Shown here piece after piece: positions 1-41,771 of a stretch of 64,000 bases of DNA. Origin of the DNA: Candidatus Aminicenantes bacterium (lineage in GTDB: Bacteria > Acidobacteriota > Aminicenantia > Aminicenantales > Saccharicenantaceae); contig JACIYI010000009.1 in the NCBI GenBank assembly GCA_014360005.1, positions 13,347 through 77,346 of the forward strand. The letters run 5' to 3'. Both the position numbers and the translations under genes were made by a program. Under the pieces are notes generated by a model. It was not told the DNA's origin. It did no database searches and saw only the letters and a list, made by a program, of their open reading frames with translations. The stretch's first letter is position 1; each line of letters begins with the position of its first letter.

Positions 1-346
1 AGCCCAGAAAAAAAAGTATTATGGCTCTTTTAGTAGCGTGAGTTAAGCCCTGGAGCCAGGTTGTGCCATGCTCAAAACGCTTAGCCCAGGAAAAGGCCAT
101 GGCTGCCCCGCTGATGAACATAAAAAAAGCTTGACCCATGTCCCAGAGTCGGAGGCCCTTCCAGGCGGAATGATGAAATTGAAGACCTATAGCATAGAGG
201 ATCGTACCTTTAAGTGAGTCGCTTATCATGAGATCATAGAGTCCTGTGACCTCGGTGATAAGCAGAAGCATGGCGAAACCTCGATAGACGTCCAGAGACA
301 GGACGCGGCCCTCGGGTATGCCGTCAAGCCAGGAAGAATTTTTCAT
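1..346 (-). CDS. HGSNAT/DUF5009-like integral-membrane acyltransferase, N-terminal fragment (gene continues past the left edge)
   Basis: Missing from the ORF track because it has no stop codon in the window. Reverse-strand ATG at 346-344, open to position 1. My translation: MKNSSWLDGIPEGRVLSLDVYRGFAMLLLITEV...QFHHSAWKGLRLWDMGQAFFMFISGAAMAFSW. The R-x-LSLDVYRG motif and the H-x-x-W-x-G...D...FF-x-F-x-x-G motif are N-terminal hallmarks of heparan-alpha-glucosaminide N-acetyltransferase-like (DUF1624/DUF5009) membrane proteins. Same strand as the exosortase gene, 107 nt downstream of it. Confidence 0.65.
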   Translation of the reverse strand, partial: MKNSSWLDGIPEGRVLSLDVYRGFAMLLLITEVTGLYDLMISDSLKGTILYAIGLQFHHSAWKGLRLWDMGQAFFMFISGAAMAFSWAKRFEHGTTWLQGLTHATKRAIILFFLG

Positions 347-453
347 AATCTTACTTTAATGAAAAGTGCGCCTTAGGGCAATCTTCATCCGTGAATATTG
401 AATATTTTAATGAGTTTGTTTGGTATTTTTTATAATTGGTAGCGTCATCAAGA

Positions 454-1326
454 CTAGACTTCATGCGTTTTTCTGGCTTCCTGCTTCTCCAGGAACCATA
501 AAAGAAGGCCCATTAATGCCAGAACCACACAGAACATGCCATATCCCACTGACCTGTGCAGAAATCCGCCCTCAATAAATCTTTCATCTATGTAATAAGC
601 GATGAGATAGAGGAGCACAATGCGGACCCCATTTTTTATTATAATTAGCGGAATTGCCACTGAAACTAAAATCAGTTTGTTTGAAAATCTTTTTAGAAAT
701 AAATGTCCGGCCAGAAGGCTTATGATTATGATAGCAATGCTGGAACGCCAGCCAGCACATTCTGGACCCACAACCAGGGTAAATACAGGAAGATAGAATT
801 CAACTCCTTCTTTGAAGAAGGGCACGCCGATTAAGGTGAAAAGTAAGCCCGTTACCGGAACAGAAGCGCTGGCTATTAAGAGAACAATTCTATCCATTAT
901 GGCTTCGGGGATTGGAACTGCAAATAACAGAAAGGCTATAGGAAAGAGAGCCTGTCTGAAGGATTTTAAGCCAAAAAGAGCGATATAAGTGCCTGCCCAA
1001 AAAAGAATTGCTGATAATATTTGTAAGGAGATTGAGAATTCAGAATCTGGAAATTTAATCCTGATAAATAGGTGAAGAGATAGGGCGGCTACGGCTACAA
1101 AAAAGCCGAGCAGAGAAGCAGGGACCGGACTGAAAAATAAAGCTTTGCGCTTTCTAAAGAGCAGAAAGGCGCTTATGATGGGGATGATTGGAATATGAGT
1201 ATAATATAAATTAATTCTTGGGTCGGAAAGTACCGTTTTTATAGGTGTGAACCCCAGTAAGATAACAAATAGGGAAAAAAAGCAAAAAAGAATATATATA
1301 AGGTAATTTTTCTTAGACTCATCCAT
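454..1326 (-). CDS. Exosortase/archaeosortase-family transpeptidase
   Basis: 290 aa and polytopic, with about 8 hydrophobic helices. Three family motifs occur in the expected order: VVGPECAGWRSS (the Cys-x-G-x-R-S active-site motif), IKNGVRIVLLY (conserved Asn/Arg) and FLHRSVGYG (conserved His). Starts 53 nt downstream of a PEP-CTERM-type gene on the same strand. Confidence 0.85.
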   Translation of the reverse strand: MDESKKNYLIYILFCFFSLFVILLGFTPIKTVLSDPRINLYYTHIPIIPIISAFLLFRKRKALFFSPVPASLLGFFVAVAALSLHLFIRIKFPDSEFSISLQILSAILFWAGTYIALFGLKSFRQALFPIAFLLFAVPIPEAIMDRIVLLIASASVPVTGLLFTLIGVPFFKEGVEFYLPVFTLVVGPECAGWRSSIAIIIISLLAGHLFLKRFSNKLILVSVAIPLIIIKNGVRIVLLYLIAYYIDERFIEGGFLHRSVGYGMFCVVLALMGLLLWFLEKQEARKTHEV

Positions 1327-1379
1327 CTGCTATAAGAGACAACTCTGTGACCTGGCCCCGCTCAGGTTTGCTGGAAAGA

Positions 1380-1601
1380 TTAATTCTTTTTCCGTCTTTT
1401 TAGGGCATAGGCTCCGAGTCCGGCTAAGCCGATGCCTATAAGGGCAATAGCCACCGGTTCAGTCACTCCATATTTGCCGCCCCGGTGATGTCCTCTTCTG
1501 CCCCATGGCCCGAAATCATCGCTCCAGGCATATGCTGTCATACTGGCCAGCAGAACTATAAGCAAGAGCCCGACCAGAATAGTTTTTCTCGTCTTTAGCA
1601 T
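1380..1601 (-). CDS. Miniature PEP-CTERM-type (TEP variant) sorting-signal protein, putative exosortase substrate
   Basis: 73 aa. Signal peptide MLKTRKTILVGLLLIVLLASMTAYA followed by W. Then a 21-aa W/G/R/H-rich segment, WSDDFGPWGRRGHHRGGKYGV. Then TEP, the hydrophobic helix VAIALIGIGLAGLGAYAL and the basic tail KRRKKN. This matches the PEP-CTERM tripartite architecture with Thr in place of the first Pro. Confidence 0.75.
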   Translation of the reverse strand: MLKTRKTILVGLLLIVLLASMTAYAWSDDFGPWGRRGHHRGGKYGVTEPVAIALIGIGLAGLGAYALKRRKKN

Positions 1602-1689
1602 AATTAGCCCCTTTCCATAATTGCAGGCTCGCCATAATTATTGAAAATATTAATTAGCTCTGTCAAGCTTTTTTTTGGCTTGAAAAAAG

Positions 1690-1707
1690 TTCTCTAATAT
1701 TAGAGAA
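1690..1707. promoter_or_regulatory. Perfect 18-bp palindrome (putative operator) in the divergent promoter region
   Basis: TTCTCTAAT.ATTAGAGAA: all 9 base pairs are complementary (1690 pairs with 1707 through to 1698 with 1699). Lies 88 nt from the start of the PEP-CTERM gene and 50 nt from the start of the LbH acyltransferase gene. Confidence 0.4.
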
Positions 1708-1757
1708 TAGTTATCCGTAAGAATGAGCTCCTGCTGAGGTAAAAAGCGGGGTATAAG

Positions 1758-2264
1758 ATGTGGAAGCCGCTTCAGAGGATTTTTCGGCGTTTAGCCTATT
1801 TTATTCCTGGTGGATTCCGTCTCCGCCCTGGGCTTCACCGGCTGCGCGGGGTTAAAATCGGCAAAAATGTCTGGATCAGTCAGTATGTGTACATAGACGA
1901 GCTTCACCCGGAAGCAATAGAAATTGGCGATAATGTGACCATTGGCATCGGGACCGCTGTCATTTCGCACCTCTACTGGACAAAGTCCAGAGAACCGGTG
2001 GTCAAGCCGGTGGTCATTGAGTCAGATGTGTTTATCGGCCCCCATTGTGTTATACTTCCAGGAGTCCGGATTGGTAAAGGCTCGGTAATTCAGGCCGGGA
2101 CTGTAGTTTCCAGAAATGTCCCGCCTGGCGTATTTTTTGGCCACGTGCCGGCTTCAATACTCGGTAAGGTTAGCGTCCCTCTGACCACCGAACATTCCTA
2201 TCAGGAGTTTGTGCAGGGCTTGAGGCCCGTCAGACGAAGAGACGAACAAGATGATAAAAGATGA
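1758..2264 (+). CDS. Hexapeptide-repeat (left-handed beta-helix) acyl/acetyltransferase
   Basis: 168 aa with imperfect hexapeptide repeats (IGKNVWISQYVYI, IGDNVTIGIGTAVI, IESDVFIGPHCVILPGVRIGKGSVIQAGTVV) typical of MAT/WcaF-like O-acyltransferases. The 3' end overlaps the carrier-protein gene by 14 nt. Confidence 0.85.
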   Translation: MWKPLQRIFRRLAYFIPGGFRLRPGLHRLRGVKIGKNVWISQYVYIDELHPEAIEIGDNVTIGIGTAVISHLYWTKSREPVVKPVVIESDVFIGPHCVILPGVRIGKGSVIQAGTVVSRNVPPGVFFGHVPASILGKVSVPLTTEHSYQEFVQGLRPVRRRDEQDDKR

Positions 2265-2496
2265 AATCAGACGGTTTATAATAGAAAAATTCCTGCTCAA
2301 CTCAGGAGACCATCTGGATGACGATATGTCCCTTCTGGAGACCAACACCGTTGATTCGGTCGGGATTCTGGAAATCGTCGGCTTCATAGAAAACCATTTT
2401 AACCTCAAAGTAGAGGACGAAGAATTAACCGCCGAGAATCTGGACAGCATCAACAAAATAGCCAGGTTTATAGAGAAAAAACAGGGCAAATTCTGA
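2251..2496 (+). CDS. Acyl carrier protein
   Basis: 81 aa and acidic. LETNTVDSVGILEIVGFIENHF contains the D-S-(V/L) phosphopantetheine-attachment serine motif of carrier proteins. Its stop overlaps the ligase start (TGATG at 2494-2498). Confidence 0.85.
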   Translation: MIKDEIRRFIIEKFLLNSGDHLDDDMSLLETNTVDSVGILEIVGFIENHFNLKVEDEELTAENLDSINKIARFIEKKQGKF

Positions 2497-4169
2497 TGCA
2501 GTTTGACCCGGTTCTTATCCATGACTGGCTGACCCAGACTGCCCGCCGCCACCCGGATAAAACAGCTCTTGTTTCCCGGGGCCAGCGCCTGACCTACCGC
2601 GAAATTGAGGAAAAATCTTCCAACCTGGCTTCAGCCCTCGTCCTGATGGGCTTCAGAAAAGGCGACCGGGCTCTCATCTGCCTGGAGAACTCTCCTGAAG
2701 CGGTGATTGCCATCTACGGAGTGCTCAAAGCCGGAGGGGTTTTTGCGGTTATTGAACCAAAAAGTCCCTGGCCGGTTTTAAGTTCCATAATAAAAGATGC
2801 CGGAGCCAGAATTCTGATTACTTACAGGCACAAGCTGTTTCGCCGAGAAGGGCTCAAAGAGGATATAAAGCTGCCGGCCAGGCGCTTTCAAGTCATCATC
2901 GTGGATGGCTCGCATTCAGTCCCTCACACTTACCGCAGAGCCTTAAAATTTTCCGGACTGACGGAAAAACTTCCCGTTTCTGTTTCTCTGCCCCGGGTTC
3001 TGGAGAATGACTTAGCCTGCCTGATATACACTTCAGGTTCAACCGGCAAGCCAAAGGGAATTATGTGCACCCACCAGAATGTGGTGGCCGCGGCCAGGAG
3101 CATCATCCAGTACCTGCAGAACAGCCGCCACGATATCATCCTTGATGTTCTGCCGCTTTCTTTTGACTACGGCCTTTACCAGGTGATAATGAGCTTTATG
3201 TTCGGCGGCACGGTGGTGCTGGAATCATCTTTCGGCTACATCCAGGATATTCTTTCTCTCATTGAGAAGGAAAAGGTGACCGGGCTTCCGCTGATTCCCT
3301 CCATCTCAGCCCTGTTGCTGAAGCTTAAAAACTTCCCCGCCAGACAGCTCAAATCTCTGCGCTATATCACCAACACCGGCGCTGCCTGGCCGGTCTCTCA
3401 TATCCAGAAGCTGCGGGAAAACCTTTCCGGCGTTAAGATTTTCTCCATGTATGGATTGAGCGAATGCAAGCGGGTGAGCTACCTGCCGCCGGATTTAATT
3501 GACCAGCACCCGGATTCAGTCGGCATCCCCATGCCCGATCTTGAAGTGGCCATAGTGGACCAGAAGGGAAAGCGAGTCCCCACCGGTCAGACCGGCGAGC
3601 TTATTGTTCGAGGGCCGACCGTGATGCAGGGCTACTGGCGTGATAAAAAGCTCACCCGAAGGGTCTTCAAACAGGGGAAATACCCTGCCGACCGCTGGCT
3701 TTATACCGGTGATTTATTCCGCCAGGATGAAAAAGGACTGCTGTATTTTGTCGGGCGGCGAGACCGCCAGATAAAATCTTTCGGACATCGGATTAATCTC
3801 ACCGAGATAGAAAAAACTGTTTCCCGGCTGGAAGCAGTGCTGGAAGCGGCGGCCGTCCCGGTGCCCGATGACATTGGCGGCGAGGTCGTTGGCTTGTTTG
3901 TGGTCGGAAAGAAAGGCACCAGGATAGATGAAGCTCAGGTCAAGCAGTTCTGCCAGCAAAACCTGGAGCCTTATAAAATCCCACGGCATATCTGGCTCAA
4001 GGATTCGCTGCCTAAAACCCCTAACGGCAAGATAGATTACAAAGCATTGACCGCCTGGCTGAAAAAACCAGACCCCGATGCCGCCCCGGAAAAATCAGAT
4101 AAGACGGAGAAAAAATCATCTGGAGCTCAGCTGGTTAGGGAAGGGCAGGATAAAGAAAGGCCAGAATGA
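2496..4169 (+). CDS. AMP-forming acyl-CoA/acyl-ACP ligase (ANL adenylating enzyme)
   Basis: 557 aa with the adenylation core motifs LIYTSGSTGKPKGI, LYTGDLF, GRRDRQIKSFGHRI and PKTPNGKIDY. Translationally coupled to the upstream ACP gene. Confidence 0.9.
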   Translation: MQFDPVLIHDWLTQTARRHPDKTALVSRGQRLTYREIEEKSSNLASALVLMGFRKGDRALICLENSPEAVIAIYGVLKAGGVFAVIEPKSPWPVLSSIIKDAGARILITYRHKLFRREGLKEDIKLPARRFQVIIVDGSHSVPHTYRRALKFSGLTEKLPVSVSLPRVLENDLACLIYTSGSTGKPKGIMCTHQNVVAAARSIIQYLQNSRHDIILDVLPLSFDYGLYQVIMSFMFGGTVVLESSFGYIQDILSLIEKEKVTGLPLIPSISALLLKLKNFPARQLKSLRYITNTGAAWPVSHIQKLRENLSGVKIFSMYGLSECKRVSYLPPDLIDQHPDSVGIPMPDLEVAIVDQKGKRVPTGQTGELIVRGPTVMQGYWRDKKLTRRVFKQGKYPADRWLYTGDLFRQDEKGLLYFVGRRDRQIKSFGHRINLTEIEKTVSRLEAVLEAAAVPVPDDIGGEVVGLFVVGKKGTRIDEAQVKQFCQQNLEPYKIPRHIWLKDSLPKTPNGKIDYKALTAWLKKPDPDAAPEKSDKTEKKSSGAQLVREGQDKERPE

Positions 4170-4223
4170 GCCGAGATAAATGAAAGGCCCGTCGGGAATT
4201 AGGTTGGAAGAAGGGAAATAAGC

Positions 4224-5234
4224 ATGGCCAGAGAAAAACATATGAACGAATTTTCATATGACAGGCTCAAGCTGGACTGCGAGAAGGAAACCAACCGCCT
4301 TGCGGCTTTCATTTCCGAGGCGGTGGGCCGCTGGCTTCGCAAACAGGGCGCGGTGGTGGCCATTTCAGGCGGGATTGACAGCAGCGTCACGGCCGCTCTC
4401 TGCGTCAGAGCCCTTGGCCCTGATAAGGTTATCGGGCTCCTTATGCCCGAGAGAGATTCGCACCCCGACACTCTGCGACTCAGCCAGCTTGTGGGAGAGA
4501 GCCTTAAGATTCGGACAATTCACCGGGACATCACGCCGATTCTTGCCGGACTCGGTTTTTACCAGGAAATGACTTCCTGCCTCCAGGAAATTATCCCCGA
4601 ATATGCCGAAGGCTGGAAGTGGAAAATTTCCGCTTCAGACATTTCCGAGGAAAGGGTCTTTACTTTTTTCTGGCTGGTGGTGCAATCACCTCAGGGTGAA
4701 ATAATCAAGAAAAGGTTGCCGGCGGATAAGCTACTGCGGATGATAGCCCTGAGCAATTTCAAGCAGCGCACCCGCAAAATGCTGGAATACCACTATGCCG
4801 ACCGCTTTAACTATGCCGTGGCCGTCACTTCCAACCTGCTGGAAACAGACCAGGGATTTTTCGTCAAGCTTGGAGATGGAGCCGGCGATTTTAAGCCCAT
4901 TGCCCATCTTTATAAAAGCCAGATTTATCAGCTTGGGGAGTATCTGGGCCTGCCTGTAGCCATCACCAGACGACAGCCAACAGCCGACATTCACCCGTTG
5001 TCCCAGGGCCAGGATGAGTTTTTTTTCGGATTGCCTTACCAGCAGATGGACGCCTGCCTTTATGGGGAAAAGAATGGTATTCCGCCTGAGTCGGTGGCCA
5101 GAGCCATAGGGGTGGATGAGGAGAAGGTAAGATTAATCTACAAGCAGCTGGCCCATCGCCGCACGGCCAACAAATACCTGCGCCTCCCACCGCTTGGTTT
5201 AGAAGCTGAAGATTTAGAGCCTGAAGATCAATAA
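4224..5234 (+). CDS. nadE: NAD+ synthetase-family PP-loop ATP pyrophosphatase (NadE-like)
   Basis: 336 aa. Contains the PP-loop AISGGIDSSV and the downstream NadE-type segments GDGAGDFKPIAHLYKSQIYQLGEYLGLP and QGQDEFFFGLPYQQMD. No glutaminase domain. Has an insertion of roughly 60 aa relative to short NadE proteins (judged by eye). Confidence 0.8.
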   Translation: MAREKHMNEFSYDRLKLDCEKETNRLAAFISEAVGRWLRKQGAVVAISGGIDSSVTAALCVRALGPDKVIGLLMPERDSHPDTLRLSQLVGESLKIRTIHRDITPILAGLGFYQEMTSCLQEIIPEYAEGWKWKISASDISEERVFTFFWLVVQSPQGEIIKKRLPADKLLRMIALSNFKQRTRKMLEYHYADRFNYAVAVTSNLLETDQGFFVKLGDGAGDFKPIAHLYKSQIYQLGEYLGLPVAITRRQPTADIHPLSQGQDEFFFGLPYQQMDACLYGEKNGIPPESVARAIGVDEEKVRLIYKQLAHRRTANKYLRLPPLGLEAEDLEPEDQ

Positions 5235-5651
5235 ATCAAATATAGCCAGAATTTCGATATTTATTTTCCTGAATTTTGCGCCGAATCTTCCAATAACATC
5301 TGGCTAAATTTTAATAACCGGACCCCAAGGCGGGAAAAAAAGCCTCTTCTTAATCCCTTTTTCTTTTCTAATTTTTTTTTATCAGGCTTCATAAATGATT
5401 ATTTAACTGGGCTTTTAACCTTTGGCCCAACTGAAAACTCGATTAAGTATTGTTAGAGGATGTTCTAATCCTATCGGGAATTTCTCTTATCAGATTATTT
5501 AAGGCCTTCCAGAACAGGCAACAAAATAAACATAAAAATTAGCATTCGGCTTTTTATCGCCTACATTCATAATCCCTCCCGGTTGCCTGCTGCTGCCGGG
5601 TTATGTTAAACTCAAACTTCAAAATTTCATAAAATAAATCCGAGGTCGTAA

Positions 5652-6158
5652 ATGGAAGAAAGCAAGAAATTATCTGAGCCAATTATTCATCCTGAGGCCT
5701 TTGTGGCGGATAAAGCCGTTGTCATCGGCCGGGTTGTGCTCAAAAAAGGAGCCAGCGTCTGGTATAACGGCGTGCTCCGGGCCGATTTTGCCGACATCGT
5801 CATCGGCGAATATTCCAACATCCAGGACAACTGCGTCATCCATGTCGACTACGATACACCCACTATCCTGGGCGACTATGTCACCGTAGGCCATGGGGCC
5901 ATCCTTCACGCCTGTAAGATAGGGGATAACACCCTCATCGGCATGGGGGCAGTGGTCCTGGACCGGGCTATCATCCCGGACAACTGCCTGGTGGCGGCCG
6001 GGGCCCTTGTCCCTCCCGGTAAGACTTTTCCCTCGGGCACGCTCATCCTCGGCAACCCGGCCAAAGTGGCCCGCACCCTGACCCCAGAGGAAATCCAGCA
6101 CCTGCGGGAACATGCGCTCAACTATTATGACCTCTGGCAGAAAAATTACAGAAGCTGA
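5652..6158 (+). CDS. Gamma-class carbonic anhydrase-like hexapeptide protein (YrdA/PaaY family)
   Basis: 168 aa. IHPEAFVADKAVVIGRVVLKKGASVWYNGVLRAD...IVIGEYSNIQDNCVIHVD...VGHGAILHAC shows the typical LbH gamma-CA fold signature, including the His ligands. Confidence 0.85.
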   Translation: MEESKKLSEPIIHPEAFVADKAVVIGRVVLKKGASVWYNGVLRADFADIVIGEYSNIQDNCVIHVDYDTPTILGDYVTVGHGAILHACKIGDNTLIGMGAVVLDRAIIPDNCLVAAGALVPPGKTFPSGTLILGNPAKVARTLTPEEIQHLREHALNYYDLWQKNYRS

Positions 6159-6479
6159 CAACAGGCGCGGCAATCATTACTCAGGCCTTAATTTCTGAGC
6201 GAGATCACCCTGGTTTTTCTAAGATATTTCCCCAGCTTTTTATTTATTGATTGTCTTGGGCTGATAAACCAACCGAAGCCCAGGGATGTCTGACCAAACG
6301 CAGCCCGATGATGTCCCCTGGGCCCTGGCCGGCCCGCGCCCCCAGATAAGAAAAAGAGGCAAAATAAAAAAAATATAACAGGGGCAAAAAGGCTGTCCTC
6401 CGCAAAAAATCCGTTTTGTCAGCTCACTTCCCGCCCTTAACCTCCTCAGCTTAACCTCAGGCAAAGCTTAAATTTAAAC

Positions 6480-6505
6480 TTGACAATATTTTAACGAATT
6501 GTTAA
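6480..6505 (+). promoter_or_regulatory. Putative promoter -35 box and overlapping near-palindromic operator upstream of the XRE/ImmA gene
   Basis: TTGACA at 6480-6485. Immediately downstream is TTAACGAATTGTTAA (6491-6505), a 15-nt inverted repeat with 6 of 7 arm pairs complementary (TTAAC-N5-GTTAA), about 34 nt upstream of the ATG at 6539. I could not find a clean -10 hexamer. Confidence 0.35.
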
Positions 6506-6538
6506 TTATAGGGCGGAAGGTTCGCTGGGGAGATCATA

Positions 6539-7663
6539 ATGAACGAACTTTTCGCCGCCCGCCTTAAGAAACTCCGCGAGGAGTCCGGCCTGACCCAGGA
6601 AGAGCTGGGAGAAGCGGTCGGTCTCTCTTCAGAATACATCTCACTGCTCGAAGCTGGCAAACGCACGCCCTCCATCATTGCCCTAAACCGCATCTCCAAG
6701 TATTTCCAGAAAAATGTCTCCTATTTCCTCGAGACCAGAGAAAACCCGTTTGCCATCCTCCAGGCTGACGAGCGCCTGAATTCGGCCACCAAACGAATCC
6801 TGGCCCGTTTCCAGAAAATCTGTGAGGAATACCTGGAGCTGGAGAGGATTACCGGCCGCCACTGCCAGTTAGCCCCCCTCTATTCGGGCAGCCTGTCGCC
6901 CCACAACATGGCCGAGGAAGAACGGCGTCGCCTGGGCCTGGGCAACGAGCCGGTTCGCGATATCTTCCGCCTGGGTGAAACCAACGGCTGCCGCTACATT
7001 CGGGTCAGCCTGCCCGACGAGGCCCGGATTTCCGGAATTTTCATCTATCTGGAAGAAAAAGATGCCGCCTTTGCTCTGATAAATTCTAACCTATCGCCCG
7101 GAAAGCAGGTGGTGGCTGCGGCCCACCTCTACTGCCATTATCTCCGCGACCGGCACGAATCGCCTATCATTGATAACCTGGATGTCATCGTGGACGAATA
7201 TGTCACGCTCTATTCGCCGCGTGAGCAGTTCGCCCAGGCTTTCGCCTCGCGCTTCCTGATTCCACCCTCCAAGGTAAGAGAGCTGGTCGAGCGCGAAATC
7301 AAGACCCGGCGTCTGACCTACCCGGAAGTAATTTTCCTCAAGCGGTATTTCGGCGTCAGCACCCCGGCTATGCTCCGCACTCTTCGCCTGATGAATTATC
7401 TCAGCCGGTCGCAGTTTGAGAACTATTTCAAGCTGGACCACGAAGCCGAGGAACAGGCGATTTTCGGCGGCGTCTCGGTCGAAGAGAAAGAAATATCCGA
7501 GCCCGGCCCGGAGCTGGTGCTTCCAGAAAGGTTTTTCCTGCTGAAAAAGGAAGCCGAGCTGGTGGCAGAAGCCGAGAAAGAAGAGACTAAGGAAAAAGGC
7601 AAAACCCAGGAGCCTGCCCCTGAAAGCAAAGAAAATACTGAGCGAGAGGAAGAGGAGAGCTGA
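6539..7663 (+). CDS. XRE-family HTH regulator fused to an ImmA/IrrE (M78)-like domain with a degenerate zinc motif
   Basis: 374 aa. The N-terminal segment LKKLREESGLTQEELGEAVGLSSEYISLLEAGKRTPS is a Cro/C1-type HTH. The central segment AAAHLYCHYL...REQFAQAFASRFLIPP aligns with the ImmA/IrrE pattern HExxH...E-x-x-A-N-x-F-A-x-x-F-L-x-P, but the catalytic Glu is Leu (HLYCH, nt 7124-7138). The C-terminal tail is low-complexity and rich in E and K. Confidence 0.8.
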   Translation: MNELFAARLKKLREESGLTQEELGEAVGLSSEYISLLEAGKRTPSIIALNRISKYFQKNVSYFLETRENPFAILQADERLNSATKRILARFQKICEEYLELERITGRHCQLAPLYSGSLSPHNMAEEERRRLGLGNEPVRDIFRLGETNGCRYIRVSLPDEARISGIFIYLEEKDAAFALINSNLSPGKQVVAAAHLYCHYLRDRHESPIIDNLDVIVDEYVTLYSPREQFAQAFASRFLIPPSKVRELVEREIKTRRLTYPEVIFLKRYFGVSTPAMLRTLRLMNYLSRSQFENYFKLDHEAEEQAIFGGVSVEEKEISEPGPELVLPERFFLLKKEAELVAEAEKEETKEKGKTQEPAPESKENTEREEEES

Positions 7664-7893
7664 GCCGAGAGGGTCGGTCTGTCTTTCGCGCCTCCAATGT
7701 TTATAATATTCAACCACCAGCCGGGGCCAGTCCGCAGCGGGCAGGCTTTCCAGCCTTTAGAAGGGCGGAGGTATATTAATTTGGAGCGGGCTGACATTTT
7801 GAATACCAAGCCGGCGAGTGCCAATCATCTTCAGGCGGGCAGTGCCTCTGAAACCTTTGATTACTGGCCAATCGGATTTGGGGAGAAGAGTCC

Positions 7894-8406
7894 ATGAGTG
7901 ACGCCCCGGTTATATACGAAGAAAGGCAGAAACTAAAATTGGGCCTGCTGTGGCTGCCGGTGCTGGTGCCGACGGTGATTATGTGGTATGGCTTATACCA
8001 GCAGATAATCAACCGCCGGCCGGTGGGCACCCACCCGGCGCCGGATGCCCTTCTTATCGTCTTCTTTGCCATCTTCGGCCTGGTTTTTCCCTACTTAATG
8101 CTCAAAACTGCGCTCATTCTCCAGGTCAGACCGGACGGCTTTTATTTCCGTTATTATCCCTTTCACCTGCGCTATCACAAAATTTCCTGGCTGGAAATTA
8201 AGGACGTAGAACTCATCAATTTCTCCGCCATCCGTGACTTTGGCGGTTACGGCATTAAATATGCCAAGGGCGCCAAGATTTATGTGGCCAAGGGGAATAA
8301 AGGCCTAAAGATAACCCTGGGGAGCGGCCGGCAGCTTATTTTCAGCAGCGACAACCCGGAAATGCTACTGAGCTATATGGGCGGCCACTGGCACCGCCAG
8401 CCGTGA
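7894..8406 (+). CDS. Membrane protein: two TM helices plus a bacterial PH-like soluble domain (function unknown)
   Basis: 170 aa. Two hydrophobic helices (LGLLWLPVLVPTVIMWYGLY and ALLIVFFAIFGLVFPYLML) are followed by a beta-rich domain (ISWLEIKDVELINFSAIRDFGGYGIKY...). A GGGGAGAAG Shine-Dalgarno-like sequence precedes the ATG. Confidence 0.5.
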   Translation: MSDAPVIYEERQKLKLGLLWLPVLVPTVIMWYGLYQQIINRRPVGTHPAPDALLIVFFAIFGLVFPYLMLKTALILQVRPDGFYFRYYPFHLRYHKISWLEIKDVELINFSAIRDFGGYGIKYAKGAKIYVAKGNKGLKITLGSGRQLIFSSDNPEMLLSYMGGHWHRQP

Positions 8407-8566
8407 GATATTAAATCTAAAATACAAGAACGGAGAAAAGTGTCATCATTTTTCTGGGTCAAGGGCAAATCATCAAAGGAAGACTTTGATTGTTGCCCGG
8501 ATGCCTATCTGTTAGAATAAAAATTCAAGTCCCGGAATCGAAAAAATACTATCTAAGGAGTTAATT

Positions 8567-11500
8567 ATGAATAGAATTTGCGGAAGATTGTTGCTGAAAA
8601 AATCTTTATGCTCAGGCCTGCTGGTTTTCATTATCTTATTGCTCTTGCCCGCTGCTTCCAGTTTGGCAACTGAAGCCGTGCCGGCTGGTCCGGCACATAC
8701 TGACCAGAGAGGTATTACCCAGAAAGAATACGGGCCGGAGCGGTCAGAACAGGAAGGGATATCTCAAGATAAATCGGGGTCAGCCCAGCCTGATAAACCA
8801 GGAAAGCAGGGCCTCCGCCCGATAGAAATTCGGGACATCCTGTCCTGGAAGAGCATCACCCTTGCCCGGGTTTCGGCTGACGGCCGCTGGTTTATTTACG
8901 ACCTGACAACCAACGAGGGCGACAGCGAGCTGGTGGTTAAGGAGATTGACGGGACAAAAGAGTACCGCTTTCCGCGTGGCGAAGTTCCCCGCGGCTTAAT
9001 GAACTCGGCGATGATCTCCGACGACTCGCGCTGGGTGGGTTTTATATCCTATCCAACTTCTGAAGAGATGAAAAAGCTGCGTAAGGAAAGAAAAAGGGTG
9101 GAACCGAAAGCCCATCTGCTTGACCTGGGAAGCGGAGAAAAGACGGAGTGGACCAGTGTTCGAGAAATAGCTTTCTCCGGAAAGAGCTCGGCCTACCTGG
9201 CGGTGCACAGGCTGGCTCCTGAAGCCCGGGATAAAGAAAAGGAAAAATGGACCGGCTCGGACTTGGTTTTGAAAAACCTTGCTTCCGGTGATGAAATCGG
9301 CTTGGGTAACGTCTCGGAATTTGCTTTCAATAAATCGGGCCGGTGGCTGGCCTACCTGGTGGATGCCCGGGACAGGAGCGGCAACGGTCTGTTAGTTCAT
9401 GACTTAAAAACCGGCCAGGTCAAAGTCCTTGATAGCGGCCGCTTCTGGTATAAAAACCTGCGCTGGGATGACAATGGTCAGGCCCTGACCGCTCTCAGGG
9501 GGCAGGAAAACAAAAAATTCGAGGATAAAGTCTACAGCCTGGTAGCCGTGAAATTTGACCCGGCCTCTGGCAGGCAGGAAAAAGTTGAATACGAGCCGGC
9601 TGCTGACGACACTTTCCCGGAAGGGTTTGGCCTGAGTCCCGATTTTACTCCTTACTGGCTCGAAGATTATGAGGCTGTGGCCCTGGGCATCAAGCAGCTC
9701 AAGGTTAAACCAGTAGCAGAAAAGGATAAGGACGAAAAGGCTGCCGGTCAGGAGAAGAAAGATTCCGCTGAGAAGCCGGAGGCCAGACCGCCCAAAGTTG
9801 AGCAGGTTGACGAGGAGGATATTCCCGATCTTATCCTCTGGCACTGGCTGGATCCCAGGCTACAATCCCAGCAGCAGGTGGAAGAGAGACGGGATGCTTC
9901 CTTCAGCTACCTCTCACTTTACCGGGTGAAGGATAAAAAATTCCTCCGGCTGGCTGACGATGAACTGCGCGAGGTTGTACTTGGCCGGAAATCCGATCTG
10001 GCTGTAGGCTACGACCATTCGCTCTACGAACTCGAAGGAAGTCTCAGCGGCCAGAGATTCAAGGATGTCTACATAGTTGACCTCAAGACCGGCCGGAGAA
10101 AACAGGCTCTCAAGCAGAATCGCTGGTCCTACGGCCTTTCGCCCGACGGGCGCTATTTTCTTTACTACGATGACGGCCATTTCTACAGCCTGGAGCTGTC
10201 CACCGGTCGGAGCTTCAACCTGACTGCGGGGCTGCCGGCCTCCTTTGTGGATGAAGACGATGACCACAACGTGAAAAATCCCCCGGACCGACCCTTTGGC
10301 TGGTCGAGTGACAGCCGTCAGGTGCTGCTTTCCGACGGCTGGGATATCTGGATGGTGGATGCCCACGGGCAGCAGGGGGTCAACCTGACCGGGAACGGCC
10401 TTAAAGACCAGGTTAGATATACCAGGCGGTTTGTTCTGGACCCTGAGGAAAAGGGAATTGACCTGGCGAAACCGCAATATTTTCAGGCCTTCGGCGAGTG
10501 GACTAAGAAACAGGGGATTGCCCTTGTTGACGCCCGGAAGAAGACGTTTCGGATGCTCCTCTGGGGCGATGCCCAGTTCAACCGCCTGCTGAAGGCCGAA
10601 AAGGCAGGACGCTACCTGTACACCAGAGAAACGCACCGTGATTTTCCAGATTTTTACGCTTCCGACGCCCTGCTGGCAAAGGGCCTTCGCATCACCGAGG
10701 CCAATCCCCAGCAGAAGGAGTTCCTGTGGTCGGCCGGCGTACGTCTGGTTGATTACGTCAGCGATAAAGGCCAAAAACTCCAGGCCGCCCTGTTCCTGCC
10801 CGCCGGTTATCAGGAAGGTAAGAAATATCCCACCATCGTTTATATTTACGAAAAGCTTTCCAACAACCTGAACCGTTATTTCCTGCCAACGGCCAACGGC
10901 TTCAACAAATCTTATTACACCAGCCAGGGCTATGCCGTTCTAATGCCCGACATCACCTATACCGTCAACGACCCTGGAATGTCGGCGGTCTGGTGTGTAC
11001 TTCCGGCTCTTAAGGCGGCCATAGCCACTGGTATTGTCGACCCGGAGAGGGTCGGCCTGCAGGGACATTCTTGGGGAGGTTACCAGACGGCTTTCCTTAT
11101 TACCCAGACCGAGGCCTTCGCTGCGGCTGTGGCCGGGGCTCCTCTGACCAATATGATTTCCATGTACAGCTCTATTTACTGGAATACCGGCTCGGCCAAC
11201 CAGCCGATTTTTGAGAGCAGCCAGGGTCGGTTTACGGGCGGTTACTGGGAGAACCTTGAGGCCTATACCCGGAATTCGCCGGTTTACTATGCTCCCAGGG
11301 TGAAGACTCCGCTTCTGCTTCTTCACAACGACCGGGACGGAGCGGTAGTCTTTAACCAGGGTGTTGAGTATTACAATACTCTCCGCCGGTTGAAAAAGCC
11401 GGTGGTCATGCTGGAATACGTAGGGGAGAACCACGGTCTACGAAAGCCGGCCAACCGCACGGACTACACTGTCAGGATGAAAGAGTTTTTCGATCATCAC

Positions 11501-17117: not shown

Positions 17118-20084
17118 TTATTTCTGGATAGCGTCTTTGACGCAGCGGAAGCCCACCGTGGCGTTGCGGTCGAGGCCAGGAGAGATAAGCAACAGTGTCT
17201 GCTGGCGGCTTACCGGCAGCGGTCCGCTCTTTGGATACCAGATACTGGCTTCCGGCGAGTAATAACTTCCGCCTTTAATCATCACGTAGGAATAAACTCC
17301 GTTATCATAGACGTCAGCGGTTAATTGCCAGACGTTGCCCACCAGGTCTTCCACCCCGAAGGGACTGGCTCCGGCCGGGTGAGCCTCAACAGCTGTGGTC
17401 TGCCCGGTTTTGTGGTTGCAGCGGCTTGGGTCAAGCTTATTTCCCCAGGGATACTGGCGACCATCCGTTCCCTGGGCGGCATACTGCCATTCCGCTTCGG
17501 TCGGCAGGCGCTTTCCGGTCCAGCGGGCATAGGCTTCGGCATCTTCCAGGTTGACCCAGACTACCGGATGATTTTCCTGCCCGGCGGGCGGCTTGCCGTT
17601 TACCCAGTGTTTCAGGAAATTGGTTGGGTCTTTTGGCTTGTAGCCAGATTTTTTCAGGAACAGGGCAAACTGAGCGTTGGTCACCGGGTATTTATCCATG
17701 AAGAAGCGCGGCATCAATATTTTCTCGCCTTCAGCCTTTTCCGGGTAGGGGATGACCGGGTTGGCGTCGTCGGGATTGCCGACCGTGGTGTAGGTATATT
17801 CGCCACCCGGGATTTCTACCATACCTTCGGGTGCCAGCTCGGCTCTGGAGGTTGGCTTGACCGGGTTGACCAGGCGCGGCAGAGCCACAGGCAGCGGAAT
17901 TACGGCTTCATCAAGAAGTTCACCCCCGGCCGAGAAAAGCTGTACGACCACCTTCTCGCCCTTCCCCTGGAACTGCTCCCAGAGAGAAAATTCCAGGTCA
18001 GAGGCCGGAAAAACGGCCGTTTTAGCCTGGTAAGACGGATTGCCGGGGGTAACCACCAATCGCCCCTCTACGGGCTTTGTAGCCAGTTTTACGGCAATTT
18101 TGTCCCGGTATCTGTGGGCTTTAATGATTTCCGGCAGGGCGGCCAGGCAGTCCAGGTTGCCTTCCAGGCGGGTATCCAGGTGGTGCCGGCTGAAGGCTTC
18201 AAGCTCGGCCGGAAGATAAAGGCAGTCTCCCACCTTTTCCGGCTTGAGCTCCTCATGCCGCCACAGGCTGACGAAGTGGTAGCCCGGTTTTTCTTTGATG
18301 GGGATGAGCGGACCCCGGTAGCCTTCGGGCTTCAGGCTGAAAACGGTGAAAATTATCTTGTTATCAGCCGGCCAACAGTTGGCCCAGAGGCCATCCTCAA
18401 GCACCGGGTAGAAAGGAATCCAGTCCGGGCTGATGAAGGCCGAATGATTCTCCCGCAGGATTTTCAGGGTTCTCCCGAGGTGTGACAGGTCTTCTTCAAT
18501 GGTCTCGGGCCGTCCGGGCCGCATGGTGTTTATCTCGCTGCCGTAACCGTTGAAGAAGGCCACCGAAGCTTCTCGCCGGAAACGGCCTTCGCCGAGCTGG
18601 ATAACCCGGAAGATGGCGTTATCGGGCTTGATGAATTTGTTCAGGTTGAGGGGCGGTGGGAGGTAAAGGGCGTCGTGAACTCTTCCGGCGACTATTCCCG
18701 GCATATCTTTTGGCACGGCCATGCCCTCGCTGTACATGATGATACCGGGTTTGACCCGGTCGGCCATGGCCTGGAATTCACGGCTGGATTCCCCCCAGGT
18801 GTCAAGTATGACCCCGTCGGCATCGAGCTCACGCAGGATGCTTTCCATGGCCTGGAGGTGTTCTTCCCGCCGGGTGCTTTCATCCCAGGGGTTGTAGGAA
18901 ATGAAATATTTCTTGCCTTTCTGGTGGACGTAAGCCACCTGCTTTTTGAGCTCGGCCAGGCCGCCCGGCAGATGGCGATACATATCCCACTGGTTGCGCT
19001 GGTCAAGACCGAGGCGCGGCCAGGTCGGCCAGATGGCATAGATGTCTATTCCGCCAACGAGTTTATCCCAGGCCAGCAGGTTTTCGTAAAAAGTGTACCG
19101 GCCGGACTGGCGGTCGTAATAGGCGTGGTCCCAGGCGAACTGCAGCAGCATCAGGTAAGATTTCCTGACCCACTTCAGGTCTTCTCTTTCGTAGAGCGAG
19201 TTATCGAATTTTTCCAGGTCGTAGAGGTAGCGCTCCTGGAACATCAGCCTCAGGCCGCCGAACCAGGGTTCAGGCGAAAAGAGAAGGTCATAAGCCAGGC
19301 CGCTTTGGGGAGAAACCTCTGCCGGGTGCACCTCAAGGTAAAGGTTGTATTCCAGGAAACCGCCGGATTCCAGGGTGGCTGCCCAGCGCCGGATTTCGGT
19401 TTTCTCGCTTCGGTCGCGCCGGGCCAGAGCCACCAGGTTGAGGCCCGGAGCCACTTCCAGGTCGCAGAAACCGAGGTGCCAGGCGTTATCCGGCAGCAGA
19501 ACTCCGATTGGCTTTTTACCGGGGCGGTAGAGAAGCGTCCGGCTCAGGTAATGGGGCCATCTATTGGGAAGACCGGCGGTGATATAGACGCGGTCCGGTC
19601 CTTCGGCCAGCGGAACCAGGTTTTCTATCTTCACTTTTTCCTGGCTGATATTTTCCAGTCGCAAAACCAGGTTGAGGCCAGGGTAGGCAGAAGCTTTGGC
19701 GGTGAGTCGGGCTTTTGCCTTACCCTCAAGACTAAACTCCAGGAAGTTCTGAGCGGAAGAAATAGCGGGGTTGCCTGGCTGTCCCGAGGTTAAGGTGGCT
19801 GAAATCTCCCGGTTGGCTTCCGGCTTTATCCAGGCTGCCGAAAATAATTTTTCAGAAAGTAGCAGGCTAAAAAGGGGCAGGGAAGTGGGCGGGATAATTT
19901 CTCGGCCGTCAGTTAATTTCAGGCTCTTGATAATCAGTCCGTCTCTGGGGCTGATGGTCAGGGTTATCTGTTTGAGTTCAGGACGGGAGGCATCTCTGGC
20001 TGACAGCGTAACCTGGAAGAAAGAAAATATCAGCAAATAAGTGAGAACTAATTTGTAGATGGTTCTGTTCATGGCCAACCTCAC
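17118..20084 (-). CDS. Large secreted protein with a C-terminal FGE/SUMF1 (sulfatase-modifying-factor)-like domain
   Basis: 988 aa with a signal peptide (MNRTIYKLVLTYLLIFSFFQVTLSA). The C-terminal roughly 280 aa read FFMDKYPVTNAQFALFLKKSGYKP...HPVVWVNLEDAEAYARWTGKRLPTEAEWQYAAQG...YPWGN...GASPFGVEDLVGNVWQLT...IKGGSY...GFRCV, the canonical FGE-sulfatase fold signature. The central segment (YNPWDE...ELDADGVILDTWGE) resembles a TIM-barrel glycosidase-like module, but that assignment is low confidence. Confidence 0.85.
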   Translation of the reverse strand: MRLAMNRTIYKLVLTYLLIFSFFQVTLSARDASRPELKQITLTISPRDGLIIKSLKLTDGREIIPPTSLPLFSLLLSEKLFSAAWIKPEANREISATLTSGQPGNPAISSAQNFLEFSLEGKAKARLTAKASAYPGLNLVLRLENISQEKVKIENLVPLAEGPDRVYITAGLPNRWPHYLSRTLLYRPGKKPIGVLLPDNAWHLGFCDLEVAPGLNLVALARRDRSEKTEIRRWAATLESGGFLEYNLYLEVHPAEVSPQSGLAYDLLFSPEPWFGGLRLMFQERYLYDLEKFDNSLYEREDLKWVRKSYLMLLQFAWDHAYYDRQSGRYTFYENLLAWDKLVGGIDIYAIWPTWPRLGLDQRNQWDMYRHLPGGLAELKKQVAYVHQKGKKYFISYNPWDESTRREEHLQAMESILRELDADGVILDTWGESSREFQAMADRVKPGIIMYSEGMAVPKDMPGIVAGRVHDALYLPPPLNLNKFIKPDNAIFRVIQLGEGRFRREASVAFFNGYGSEINTMRPGRPETIEEDLSHLGRTLKILRENHSAFISPDWIPFYPVLEDGLWANCWPADNKIIFTVFSLKPEGYRGPLIPIKEKPGYHFVSLWRHEELKPEKVGDCLYLPAELEAFSRHHLDTRLEGNLDCLAALPEIIKAHRYRDKIAVKLATKPVEGRLVVTPGNPSYQAKTAVFPASDLEFSLWEQFQGKGEKVVVQLFSAGGELLDEAVIPLPVALPRLVNPVKPTSRAELAPEGMVEIPGGEYTYTTVGNPDDANPVIPYPEKAEGEKILMPRFFMDKYPVTNAQFALFLKKSGYKPKDPTNFLKHWVNGKPPAGQENHPVVWVNLEDAEAYARWTGKRLPTEAEWQYAAQGTDGRQYPWGNKLDPSRCNHKTGQTTAVEAHPAGASPFGVEDLVGNVWQLTADVYDNGVYSYVMIKGGSYYSPEASIWYPKSGPLPVSRQQTLLLISPGLDRNATVGFRCVKDAIQK

Positions 20085-41500: not shown

Positions 41501-41771
41501 GGTCGCGGTCTTCCTGGGCGCGGTCTGAGAAAAAGCAACATTTCTTCAGCCACCAGATGATTCTTTCCTTCATCTCCTTGGTGGCATTCCGGGTGAAAGT
41601 AATAGCCAGAATCTGCTGAGGGTCATTATGTTTGATCACCGGGGAAAGTAAAAACTGGGTGAAGCGGAGAGTAAGGGCCCTGGTTTTCCCGGTTCCAGCG
41701 GAGGCCTTGAGGATAACAAACTCGGGAAATTTGATATCCCGGTCTCTGGTTAATATGGTTTCCTTCGGCAT
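38526..41771 (-). CDS. addA: AddA/RecB-type UvrD-family helicase-nuclease subunit
   Basis: 1081 aa. Walker A LKASAGTGKTRALT, LIDEFQDTSPLQW, FIVGDTKQAIYGFREAD, TIHKAKGLGFPVV and YVALTRAREEL. The C-terminal nuclease shows RADRVVV...VIDFKTGS. Confidence 0.9.
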   Translation of the reverse strand: MPKETILTRDRDIKFPEFVILKASAGTGKTRALTLRFTQFLLSPVIKHNDPQQILAITFTRNATKEMKERIIWWLKKCCFFSDRAQEDRDLEAILNLVTIDRDQLQARAEETLNKILSNYSDFQVTTIDSFMANIFKASAIELGISPDSEITIDSGPVLSYAFSRLLKNVKADSTEFGLFQEVCHNLKEMRGSQDAYAWDPAADLEKIMMGLNRKLAAANRRARQLDLQPLRKALQELEEKFQVSREKLIRLIQDWGGCPKNSKLLKYLSRSRLSDWNDYDFGILESKKQTPPAPVVRELQKLKEITDRYKEIQARIFFQPHLKIYDRFLEVLDQARKERGLVFLEDIHCQLANYLDRGVVPDVYFSLGSEIYHYLIDEFQDTSPLQWQNLYPLIENALSQGGSLFIVGDTKQAIYGFREADYQIMVNLIKGQDGFASVRPRIAELQENWRSRPELLSWLNRIFPDGIRELPVETMDWKDAPLWREAASRSGLDDFSCRPACDSGSFPGYAELKLVDLSRKTKKEAGDQNNGSEQPDSDDLEEPEKKEVQALIKQLLDRGYRYADLAILTYENERVKQAAAWLNELQIPFVPYSALDIRSRPIIREILSLLQFLDYPLDELNFSVFLCGQLFQKRLQQDGITLEPEAVREFILNHRTLGQTPLYTAFRLTYPALWEAYFEDFFKTTGYLPLYDLVSQVFRVFRPLELFPLEEGALIKLLEVIKNFEGQGKSNLRDFIKFSAEPSEDKNLWTIDVPETLDAVKIMTIHKAKGLGFPVVILLLYREQIKSETFYLRESRTKRTTRAGGPQPVEVLRLNASTASARPEFQRTYDDHRQRERVNKLNTLYVALTRAREELYVIGVKKRNEYPFPLLEAILDLETEGKNASARCQPDTRQEEKRETTRQELLAPLTVLQAGKFSPAADKPALNYYERRRGEFIHALLAAIEFAGKDLEQVLTAAAARVQTTAFSAREILAAAGTVKEFLSLPEVAAYFERRTGRVVHREIELVDARGRLFRADRVVVDPDRVTVIDFKTGSTDDPELRTNYFQQIRSYMSMLSDIYPGRKIEGILMYPDQKKLERA

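Follow-up and report, generated by a model that had tools for sequence, protein, structure and literature searches.

What does an exosortase do beside one tiny substrate, across a divergent promoter region from genes that activate and carry an acyl-type unit? The question is raised by seven genes at the start of a 64,000-nucleotide (nt) stretch of contig JACIYI010000009.1 from a Candidatus Aminicenantes bacterium, hereafter the window. A sequence-only reading had proposed an undescribed, self-contained system that acylates a short surface peptide. The present analysis instead points to a reduced variant of a known exosortase system, with a small and tractable substrate. We lean, with slightly better than even confidence, towards two modules of one lineage-specific PEP-CTERM/exosortase system (Aminicenantes, Ca. 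Saccharicenans-like), which would be joined in relatives by a third module.

Open reading frame (ORF) listing with translations reproduced all seven genes of that reading, with their strands, gaps and overlaps, and families were assigned by hidden Markov model (HMM) searches against NCBIfam and Pfam. Because all seven are kept as proteins across many diverged relatives, they are not chance ORFs. Loci of relatives, from metagenome-assembled genomes (MAGs) and metagenomes, carry L-numbers, and percentages refer to what is stated at each locus. The features are as follows.

1..346, minus strand: HGSNAT/NagX/DUF5009-like polytopic membrane acyltransferase (HMM), N-terminal 115 codons, cut by the window start
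454..1326, minus strand: exosortase (HMM), 290 amino acids (aa), unclassified subfamily, 53 nt downstream of the precursor gene
1380..1601, minus strand: mini PEP-CTERM-type precursor, 73 aa (TIGR02595 and conservation)
1637..1666, minus strand: predicted sigma-70-type promoter ahead of the peptide gene (TTGACA and AATAAT with 18 nt between them), the ribosome-binding site GAAAGGGG coming after it
1758..2264, plus strand: LbH (hexapeptide-repeat) acyltransferase, 168 aa (PF00132)
2251..2496, plus strand: stand-alone carrier protein, 81 aa, Ser36 in a DSV motif (PF00550)
2496..4169, plus strand: predicted VinN-like stand-alone adenylating enzyme, 557 aa (TIGR03098 the best NCBIfam match)
4224..5234, plus strand: NadE-type PP-loop ATP-pyrophosphatase, 336 aa, SGGIDS at residue 48 (NF002048)

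The acyltransferase ORF starts at nt 346, 107 nt beyond the exosortase, and runs off the window start. On the plus strand the LbH and carrier genes overlap by 14 nt and the carrier and ligase genes by 1 nt (TGATG stop/start), and 54 nt separate the ligase from the NadE-type gene.

The peptide, its exosortase and the membrane acyltransferase

The 73-aa ORF is a real, conserved gene. Its product starts with a signal peptide that ends in AYA; then come about 24 aa of mature sequence (WSDDFGPWGRRGHHRGGKYGVTEP), a transmembrane (TM) helix and a KRRKKN tail. The tripartite C-terminus can be read directly as VTEP-VAIALIGIGLAGLGAYAL-KRRKKN, its motif being TEP or AEP rather than PEP, and scores marginally above the cut-off of the PEP-CTERM sorting domain model TIGR02595 (17.6 vs 16). 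Orthologues adjoin the exosortase in 17 distinct loci, down to approximately 42% exosortase identity, with enzyme and target encoded consecutively, which bears out the idea of an exosortase locus with one adjacent mini-substrate. All orthologues possess an A-x-A signal peptide end, a mature part of 12-30 residues rich in Gly/Pro/Arg/Lys/His, the motif [SG]V[AT]EP, a TM helix and a basic tail; the mature part is of low complexity and poorly conserved outside GP and the sorting motif. The precursor is the only PEP-CTERM-like ORF in the window, and none other was seen within +/-10 kb of the clade loci. Its predicted promoter agrees with the consensus at 11 of 12 positions, and GCTTGACA, an N17-18 spacer, (T)GATAAT and the ribosome-binding site GAAAGGGG recur upstream of the peptide gene in relatives (L001, L004, L005, L008-L010, L012-L014, L092 and L094).

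JGI and NCBI records (including P0107/P0111) label the peptide family 'LPXTG cell wall anchor domain-containing protein', and the TIGR01167 (LPXTG) model scores 24.9 on the peptide against a cut-off of 15.9. As this match is driven by the TM helix and the basic tail, the label is a mis-annotation; an LPXTG anchor identity was rejected, the peptide having no LPXTG motif, an exosortase as neighbour and a diderm host. Markers of the latter are a beta-barrel protein of the outer membrane and TonB_C, both in the window, together with LptD in L005.

Several variations on the peptide gene were observed among the relatives. In a Ca. Saccharicenans MAG (JBRAGB010000008.1; L003:9785-9814) an in-frame TGA takes the place of the conserved Trp codon (TGG) found in all other orthologues, so that the peptide reads GP*GKRG instead of GPWGKRG; a pseudogene, a sequencing error or read-through are all possible. 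Some Desulfobacterota loci contain yet smaller PEP-CTERM ORFs (L007/L018:19143-19274, L023:9302-9442 and L033:19180-19347), some of them of 42-46 aa and barely more than a VVPEP-TM-RRKRR domain without signal peptide, and one a 54-aa precursor with a mature part that would be about 7 residues long (TPSVPEP). In L005 (11641-13587) and L006 (11452-14061) a large Pel9A-like beta-helix protein (PKD or FG-GAP) is encoded directly after the mini-peptide; no PEP-CTERM tail was detected on either by pattern scan.

The exosortase exceeds the generic cut-offs (PF09721, 133.6 vs 25.7 bits; TIGR02602, 118.1 vs 105.55; TIGR04178, 57.7 vs 23) and falls below that of every named Xrt/Crt type. It is thus not a generic XrtA (TIGR03109, 119.6 bits vs 208), in agreement with the sequence-only reading, and the further type scores are 113 vs 300 for XrtC, 114 vs 400 for XrtD, 104 vs 425 for XrtW, 93 vs 313 for XrtV and 64 vs 275 for XrtB. 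The exosortases of L005, L006, L016, L027, L067 and L070 likewise reach no named type. A Cys-Arg-His catalytic triad has been proposed for exosortases (Haft preprint, bioRxiv 10.1101/2023.06.07.544157), and all its candidate residues (C190, R194/R235 and H208/H257) are invariant across 17 clade members, as are E189, directly before the Cys, and N232. The closest named relatives of the enzyme come from Ca. Saccharicenans MAGs, and other Aminicenantes MAGs are also among its relatives. Elsewhere, exosortase domains occur in long fusion proteins of about 650 aa, encoded no more than 10 kb away from an AsnB-ACP-ligase-NadE cassette (ACP, acyl carrier protein) in L110 (11884-13890), L151 (11025-12989) and L154 (17960-19969).

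The window fragment of the membrane acyltransferase matches NagX (NF046061) at 32.5 bits (E=4.8e-8) and DUF5009 (PF16401) at 16.8, below the cut-off of 25; sequence comparison with PDB found no solved-structure relative. The gene is intact beside the exosortase in L003, L004, L008-L010, L016 and L092-94. In four relatives a remnant is left (L005:10855-11127, L012:10938-11192, L013:2455-2646 and L014:7315-7476), which in L005 is a 90-aa ORF with the N-terminal 25 residues fused to the C-terminal 65. Peptide and exosortase are intact in all four, and the plus-strand cassette is too, except in L013. The acyltransferase is therefore not essential, and to that extent the part given to it in the sequence-only reading did not hold up.

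An aminoacyl-type carrier cassette

Of all ligase families, TIGR03098 (exosortase A system-associated AMP-forming ligase) matches the window enzyme best, though the score of 435.9 falls short of the 592.35 cut-off; its counterparts score 493 in L070, 418 in L005 and 346-388 for a second ("type 2") form. The best solved relatives of the ligase are adenylation enzymes of the nonribosomal peptide synthetase (NRPS) type; the PDB matches include VinN at 254 bits over the full length and DltA at 153 bits, and VinN leads the comparison of substrate cores by far (118 bits vs 62 for the next solved structure). The substrate of VinN is 3-methyl-Asp or L-Asp, which the enzyme attaches to a stand-alone ACP in the form of a beta-amino acid. 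Its determinants comprise D230, F231, S299 and K330/R331: the Asp binds the amino group, the aromatic and hydroxyl residues lie opposite, and the Lys-Arg pair is located in a beta13-beta14 loop that is shortened by one residue (PMC11253843). D224, Y225, T294, K325 and R326 of the window ligase align with these without a gap, and the protein displays a one-residue gap relative to other adenylation (A) domains. Since every VinN substrate determinant is matched, we infer that the enzyme is a predicted Asp-type amino acid:carrier-protein ligase forming a side-chain-linked thioester, and read the cassette as aminoacyl rather than fatty-acyl. The chemistry of the "acyl module" proposed earlier was therefore probably wrong.

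The motifs FDYGLYQ, TNTGAA and ECKRV are conserved among "type 1" cassette ligases across phyla and missing from the second type (L016, L027 and L067). Six type 1 ligases (L110, L120, L156, L157, L158 and L160) have lost both the Asp that binds the amino group and the Lys that binds the carboxylate; in L091 and L155 the Asp is missing and the Lys kept. Matches to the ligase in L029 and L063 (Acidobacteriota) were set aside as 900-aa NRPS-like proteins.

The carrier protein scores just above the PF00550 cut-off (21.4 vs 20.8), with Ser36 as the predicted phosphopantetheine site. The LbH protein has sugar or lipid O-/N-acetyltransferases as its best NCBIfam and PDB matches, the NCBIfam ones all below cut-off, and a weak match to the LbH terminal domain of Pls/PosA NRPSs (TIGR02353, E=3e-10); the PDB matches, being generic acetyltransferases, give no clue to donor or acceptor. 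Its orthologues, at 54-60% identity, occur in Desulfobacterota exosortase loci.

The NadE-like protein carries SGGIDS and scores 422.7 with NF002048 (PRK00876), the NAD(+) synthase subfamily model with a cut-off of 313. Compared with solved NadE structures it contains an insertion of about 65 aa, and the PDB alignment splits into residues 17-106 and 175-313. Its genomic context, described below, argues for a probable role other than the amidation of nicotinic acid adenine dinucleotide (NaAD), and the public 'NAD synthase' label of the gene is, judged on this context, a mislabel.

No signal peptide or TM segment is evident when the sequences of the four cassette proteins are read. These proteins therefore probably have no direct contact with the exported peptide, and its direct acylation by these cytoplasmic enzymes, as had been suggested, would be topologically awkward.

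Linkage of the modules and rival explanations

The divergent layout recurs in L001, L003, L004/L093, L009, L010, L012, L014, L092 and L094 (10 further distinct loci), which alone is weak evidence of linkage because the wider flanks of those loci are syntenic too. Stronger evidence is provided by rearranged loci. In L005 (53% exosortase identity) a single operon encodes LbH, ACP, ligase, NadE and exosortase, and the NadE gene overlaps the exosortase start by 4 nt. In L016 and L022 (42-44% exosortase identity) NadE, with or without the ligase, is convergent on the peptide gene. In the Desulfobacterota loci L027, L067/L089 and L070, homologues of the ligase, ACP, NadE-like and LbH genes lie directly upstream of the exosortase, from which the ligase is separated by 23-28 nt in L027 and L089; these cassettes are embedded in a large polysaccharide locus of the classical kind, which also encodes Wzz, a priming transferase, PrsK/R-like regulators and PEP-CTERM proteins. 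The expectation that the ligase/ACP operon is syntenic with exosortases in relatives was thus confirmed, also after rearrangement (L005, L016, L022 and Desulfobacterota L027/L067/L070).

The locus is not self-contained in its relatives. In L009 and L010 the peptide-exosortase-acyltransferase arm runs on into two FemAB-like genes, an ATP-grasp gene, methyltransferases, a deacetylase/DUF354 fusion and WecB; the latter is bona fide (326 vs 210), and the FemAB-like proteins match best TIGR03019 (XrtA/PEP-CTERM-associated), at 115-117 against a cut-off of 260. In L090, which has a cassette of 84% DNA identity and the same right flank as the window, a sugar aminotransferase, two FemAB-like genes and the deacetylase/DUF354 fusion replace the exosortase arm. 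The exosortase arm adjoins the cassette in the window and the FemAB arm in L008-L014, while the cassette adjoins the FemAB arm in L090; in L005 the DUF354 fusion is directly upstream of the LbH gene, so that DUF354, cassette and exosortase occur together. Three modules that are pairwise adjacent in different genomes form the pattern expected for parts of one system. Their relationship to the known XrtA gene set shows in the family matches, which are best to TIGR03098 for the ligase and to TIGR03019 for the FemAB-like proteins, and in a match of AsnB-like proteins to TIGR03108.

As for the surroundings, the 62-kb right side of the window contains housekeeping genes out to 60 kb and no polysaccharide cluster, in keeping with the sequence-only reading. 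No Wzz/chain-length determinant, Wza/export protein, priming sugar transferase or PrsK/PrsR/PrsT was detected there, nor in the 10-kb flanks of L001, L003, L004 and L009; a classical large PEP-CTERM polysaccharide locus is accordingly missing from the right side, and such genes are present in Desulfobacterota L089 and L027. The left flank of L001, a 90% relative, encodes UbiX/UbiD, an amine oxidase, one GT4 and haem genes, and no FemAB or deacetylase genes lie within 10 kb. In L001/L002 (8829-9617) an integrase-core (rve_3) gene, likely an insertion sequence, stands between the LbH and peptide genes and splits the divergent promoter region.

In the mechanism that we propose, module 1, which sequence and conservation show, consists of the mini-precursor behind its strong predicted promoter, the exosortase dedicated to it, which belongs to no named subfamily, and the HGSNAT/NagX-like membrane acyltransferase. 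The precursor would be exported via Sec and cut by signal peptidase after AYA, and the peptide, held in the membrane by its C-terminal helix, would then be cut by the exosortase at V[AT]EP. In the cytoplasm (module 2), the VinN-like enzyme may activate an Asp-type amino acid via its side-chain carboxyl and load it onto the carrier protein. The NadE-like enzyme could amidate the remaining carboxylate, in keeping with the chemistry of its family (ATP-dependent carboxylate amidation), and the LbH enzyme may transfer the aminoacyl unit to a cytoplasmic envelope precursor, glycan or lipid. With the third module of relatives (two FemAB-like proteins, deacetylase/DUF354, WecB and a sugar aminotransferase), the set would represent the reduced and rearranged accessory genes of classical exosortase polysaccharide loci. 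We speculate that the modified envelope molecule is a likely partner, possibly the amine acceptor, of the peptide. In a bolder form, which we hold to be distinctly improbable, the cassette would build a beta-linked aspartyl unit with an amidated alpha-carboxyl (iso-asparagine-like, with a free amine) on an envelope glycan or lipid, and this amine would act as the nucleophile of exosortase transpeptidation, so that the peptide of about 24 residues is joined covalently. A parallel to such an aspartyl acceptor is the D-iso-Asx cross-bridge, the acceptor of sortases and penicillin-binding proteins in some Gram-positive cell walls.

A number of observations weigh against a single two-module system. 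When metagenomes were scanned for the NadE-like protein, at least 573 related stretches came up, and the best 80 loci among them were examined. An exosortase was present in the available flanks of 6 of these 80, and in 3 of the 12 with full 10-kb flanks. Of the 33 loci that span at least 8 kb, 29 had a NadE-like gene, 29 an AsnB-like gene, 23 the ligase and 20 an ACP. This makes the cassette a widespread module, which in many but not all cases lies near an exosortase; it is not exosortase-specific, and usually travels with an AsnB-like gene, which the window clade does not have. Furthermore, the modules are separated in L090, L013, L006 and L015, the membrane acyltransferase has decayed in the four relatives listed above, and L016, L027 and L067 carry the second ligase type without the VinN determinants, so that the cassettes are not strictly orthologous. 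The NadE-like protein passes an NCBI NAD(+) synthase model, and the left flank of this genome lies outside the window. The core of AsnB-like, ACP, ligase and NadE-like genes, with two ligase types, abounds in metagenomes from soil, sediment and marine sites (L095-L169), with at least 573 stretches.

The low exosortase count would fit two functionally independent arms, the cassette decorating a polysaccharide or lipopolysaccharide sugar, the exosortase arm sorting the peptide, and their adjacency stemming from shared polysaccharide-locus ancestry. Similar ligase/ACP/acyltransferase sets do decorate sugars, the arms are uncoupled in L090 and L013, and synteny of the flanks within the Saccharicenans clade makes the adjacency there partly a matter of vertical inheritance. 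However, the adjacency recurs in different orientations in three distant lineages, with the 4-nt overlap in L005 and the short gaps in L027 and L089, and NCBIfam names the nearest ligase, FemAB and amidotransferase families as XrtA-system-associated; we therefore consider independence unlikely. Still less probable is that the seven genes form a self-contained minimal system, in which the activate-carry-transfer module turns the short peptide into a lipidated, surface-anchored product by acylating it, for instance at the new C-terminus. The compact divergent layout with its tight coupling, the housekeeping right flank and the gene content around L001 are in line with it, and an HGSNAT-type enzyme could in principle move an acyl group across the membrane, given the similarity to NagX. 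Against it stand a ligase that resembles amino-acid:carrier-protein rather than fatty-acid ligases, cassette proteins that appear cytoplasmic while the mature peptide is exported, the decay of the membrane acyltransferase, the larger system in relatives and the wide occurrence of the cassette without exosortases.

Two further explanations concern single components, and we give little credence to either. The exosortase might be a maturation protease only, freeing a short cationic Gly/His/Arg-rich peptide (a signal, an antimicrobial, or a metal- or polymer-binding peptide) without covalent anchoring. The short, low-complexity mature region and the strong conserved predicted promoter would agree with this, and exosortase transpeptidation is itself unsettled (Haft preprint); yet no export or immunity genes lie nearby, a mature part so poorly conserved speaks against recognition by a specific receptor, and by analogy with ArtA and rhombosortase, where an anchor is attached (Haft preprint), more than cleavage would be expected. 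The NadE-like gene, in turn, might be the plain NAD+ synthetase of the organism and no part of the system, for which its NF002048 score, the PP-loop motif and the homology to solved NadE enzymes speak. Its family, however, keeps company with AsnB-like, ACP and ligase genes in most of the longer loci (29/33) from many environments, the gene is translationally coupled to the exosortase in L005, and solved NadE structures have no counterpart of its insertion.

Other features of the window are peripheral to the finding. A gamma-carbonic-anhydrase-like LbH gene (5652-6158) and an XRE-M78 regulator (6539-7663) were considered as system parts and rejected, both being syntenic in the close clade only and absent from L005, L016 and the Desulfobacterota loci. 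No Rfam RNA family was found in window positions 1-9000, and a repeat scan gave nothing meaningful. Further to the right are, all on the minus strand, a 611-aa protein of unusual architecture with an N-terminal response-regulator receiver and a C-terminal TonB_C (42900-44735), a 988-aa protein with a C-terminal FGE-sulfatase (formylglycine-generating enzyme-like) domain as the sole one recognised (17118-20084) and an AddAB-like helicase-nuclease pair (35584-41771); the latter two are unrelated to the finding.

Significance and comparison with known systems

Exosortases are widespread in environmental diderm bacteria, and it is unsettled whether they transpeptidate and what their substrates are joined to (Haft preprint, bioRxiv 10.1101/2023.06.07.544157). 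Because the exosortase has a single substrate, and the mature part of this is no longer than about 24 residues, mass spectrometry could read any C-terminal adduct directly; if the aspartyl amine acceptor proved true, this would be the first system with an exosortase product determinable by simple peptide mass spectrometry. The Asp-type assignment is also the first residue-level substrate prediction for the family that NCBI labels "exosortase A system-associated acyl-CoA ligase", a ligase that travels with NadE-like and AsnB-like amidating enzymes in hundreds of environmental loci. We found no paper linking exosortases with Aminicenantes or with NadE.

The nearest known system is the exopolysaccharide-associated XrtA/PEP-CTERM sorting (TIGR03109, TIGR03098, TIGR03019 and TIGR03108), in which many large substrates, with a median of eight per genome, are processed (Haft et al. 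2006, PMC1569441); that founding paper makes no mention of ligase, ACP or NadE accessories. The two have in common exosortases whose invariant residues are of the Cys/Arg/His type, a C-terminal signal made up of motif, TM helix and basic tail, and diderm hosts; accessory ligase, carrier, FemAB-like and amidating enzymes are shared as well, those found here having XrtA-associated models as their best family matches. In contrast, the exosortase and ligase here and the FemAB-like proteins of relatives all remain under the cut-offs of the XrtA set, the motif is V[AT]EP instead of PEP, one tiny substrate beside the enzyme replaces many large ones, and neither the window nor the 10 kb on either side of the locus in close relatives showed any Wzz, Wza, priming transferase or PrsK/R/T.

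A dedicated, one-to-one sorting system is defined by an enzyme that has one target only and by the regular placement of the two in consecutive genes (Haft, bioRxiv 10.1101/2023.06.07.544157). The exosortase-peptide pair fits this definition in its gene order and, within the window and the +/-10 kb of the clade loci, in its single target. The dedicated JDVT-CTERM/MrtJ system resembles it in having the enzyme and a single adjacent target in consecutive genes, with the pairing conserved across genomes. It differs in its CPBP-type protease, where an exosortase is found here, and in that the mature part here has 12-30 residues and the pair is linked to a predicted aminoacyl-carrier cassette.

For the cassette, the closest comparison is VinN-VinL of vicenistatin biosynthesis (PDB 3WV4/3WV5/3WVN; PMC11253843), the nearest solved structure in the ligase substrate core, with the five determinants and the shortened loop matched and, here, a stand-alone carrier gene immediately upstream of the ligase. 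Unlike VinN, the predicted ligase has neither a polyketide synthase context nor a decarboxylase beside it; its partners are a NadE-like protein and an LbH transferase, and the overall identity is moderate. Dlt D-alanylation (DltA/DltC/DltB) offers an analogy only, in the passage of an adenylated amino acid to a small carrier, a polytopic membrane acyltransferase and an extracytoplasmic polymer. DltC models match the carrier protein weakly, whereas the membrane protein here is HGSNAT/NagX-like, not MBOAT, and dispensable in some relatives, and no DltD is present. With the HGSNAT/NagX transmembrane glucosamine N-acetyltransferases (NF046061, PF16401), the full-length orthologues (348-391 aa) align end to end, but at 98-108 bits they stay far under the NagX cut-off of 480. 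Dedicated sorting systems and XrtA accessory genes were known already; the mini-substrate and the Asp-type prediction nevertheless open the acceptor question to experiment.

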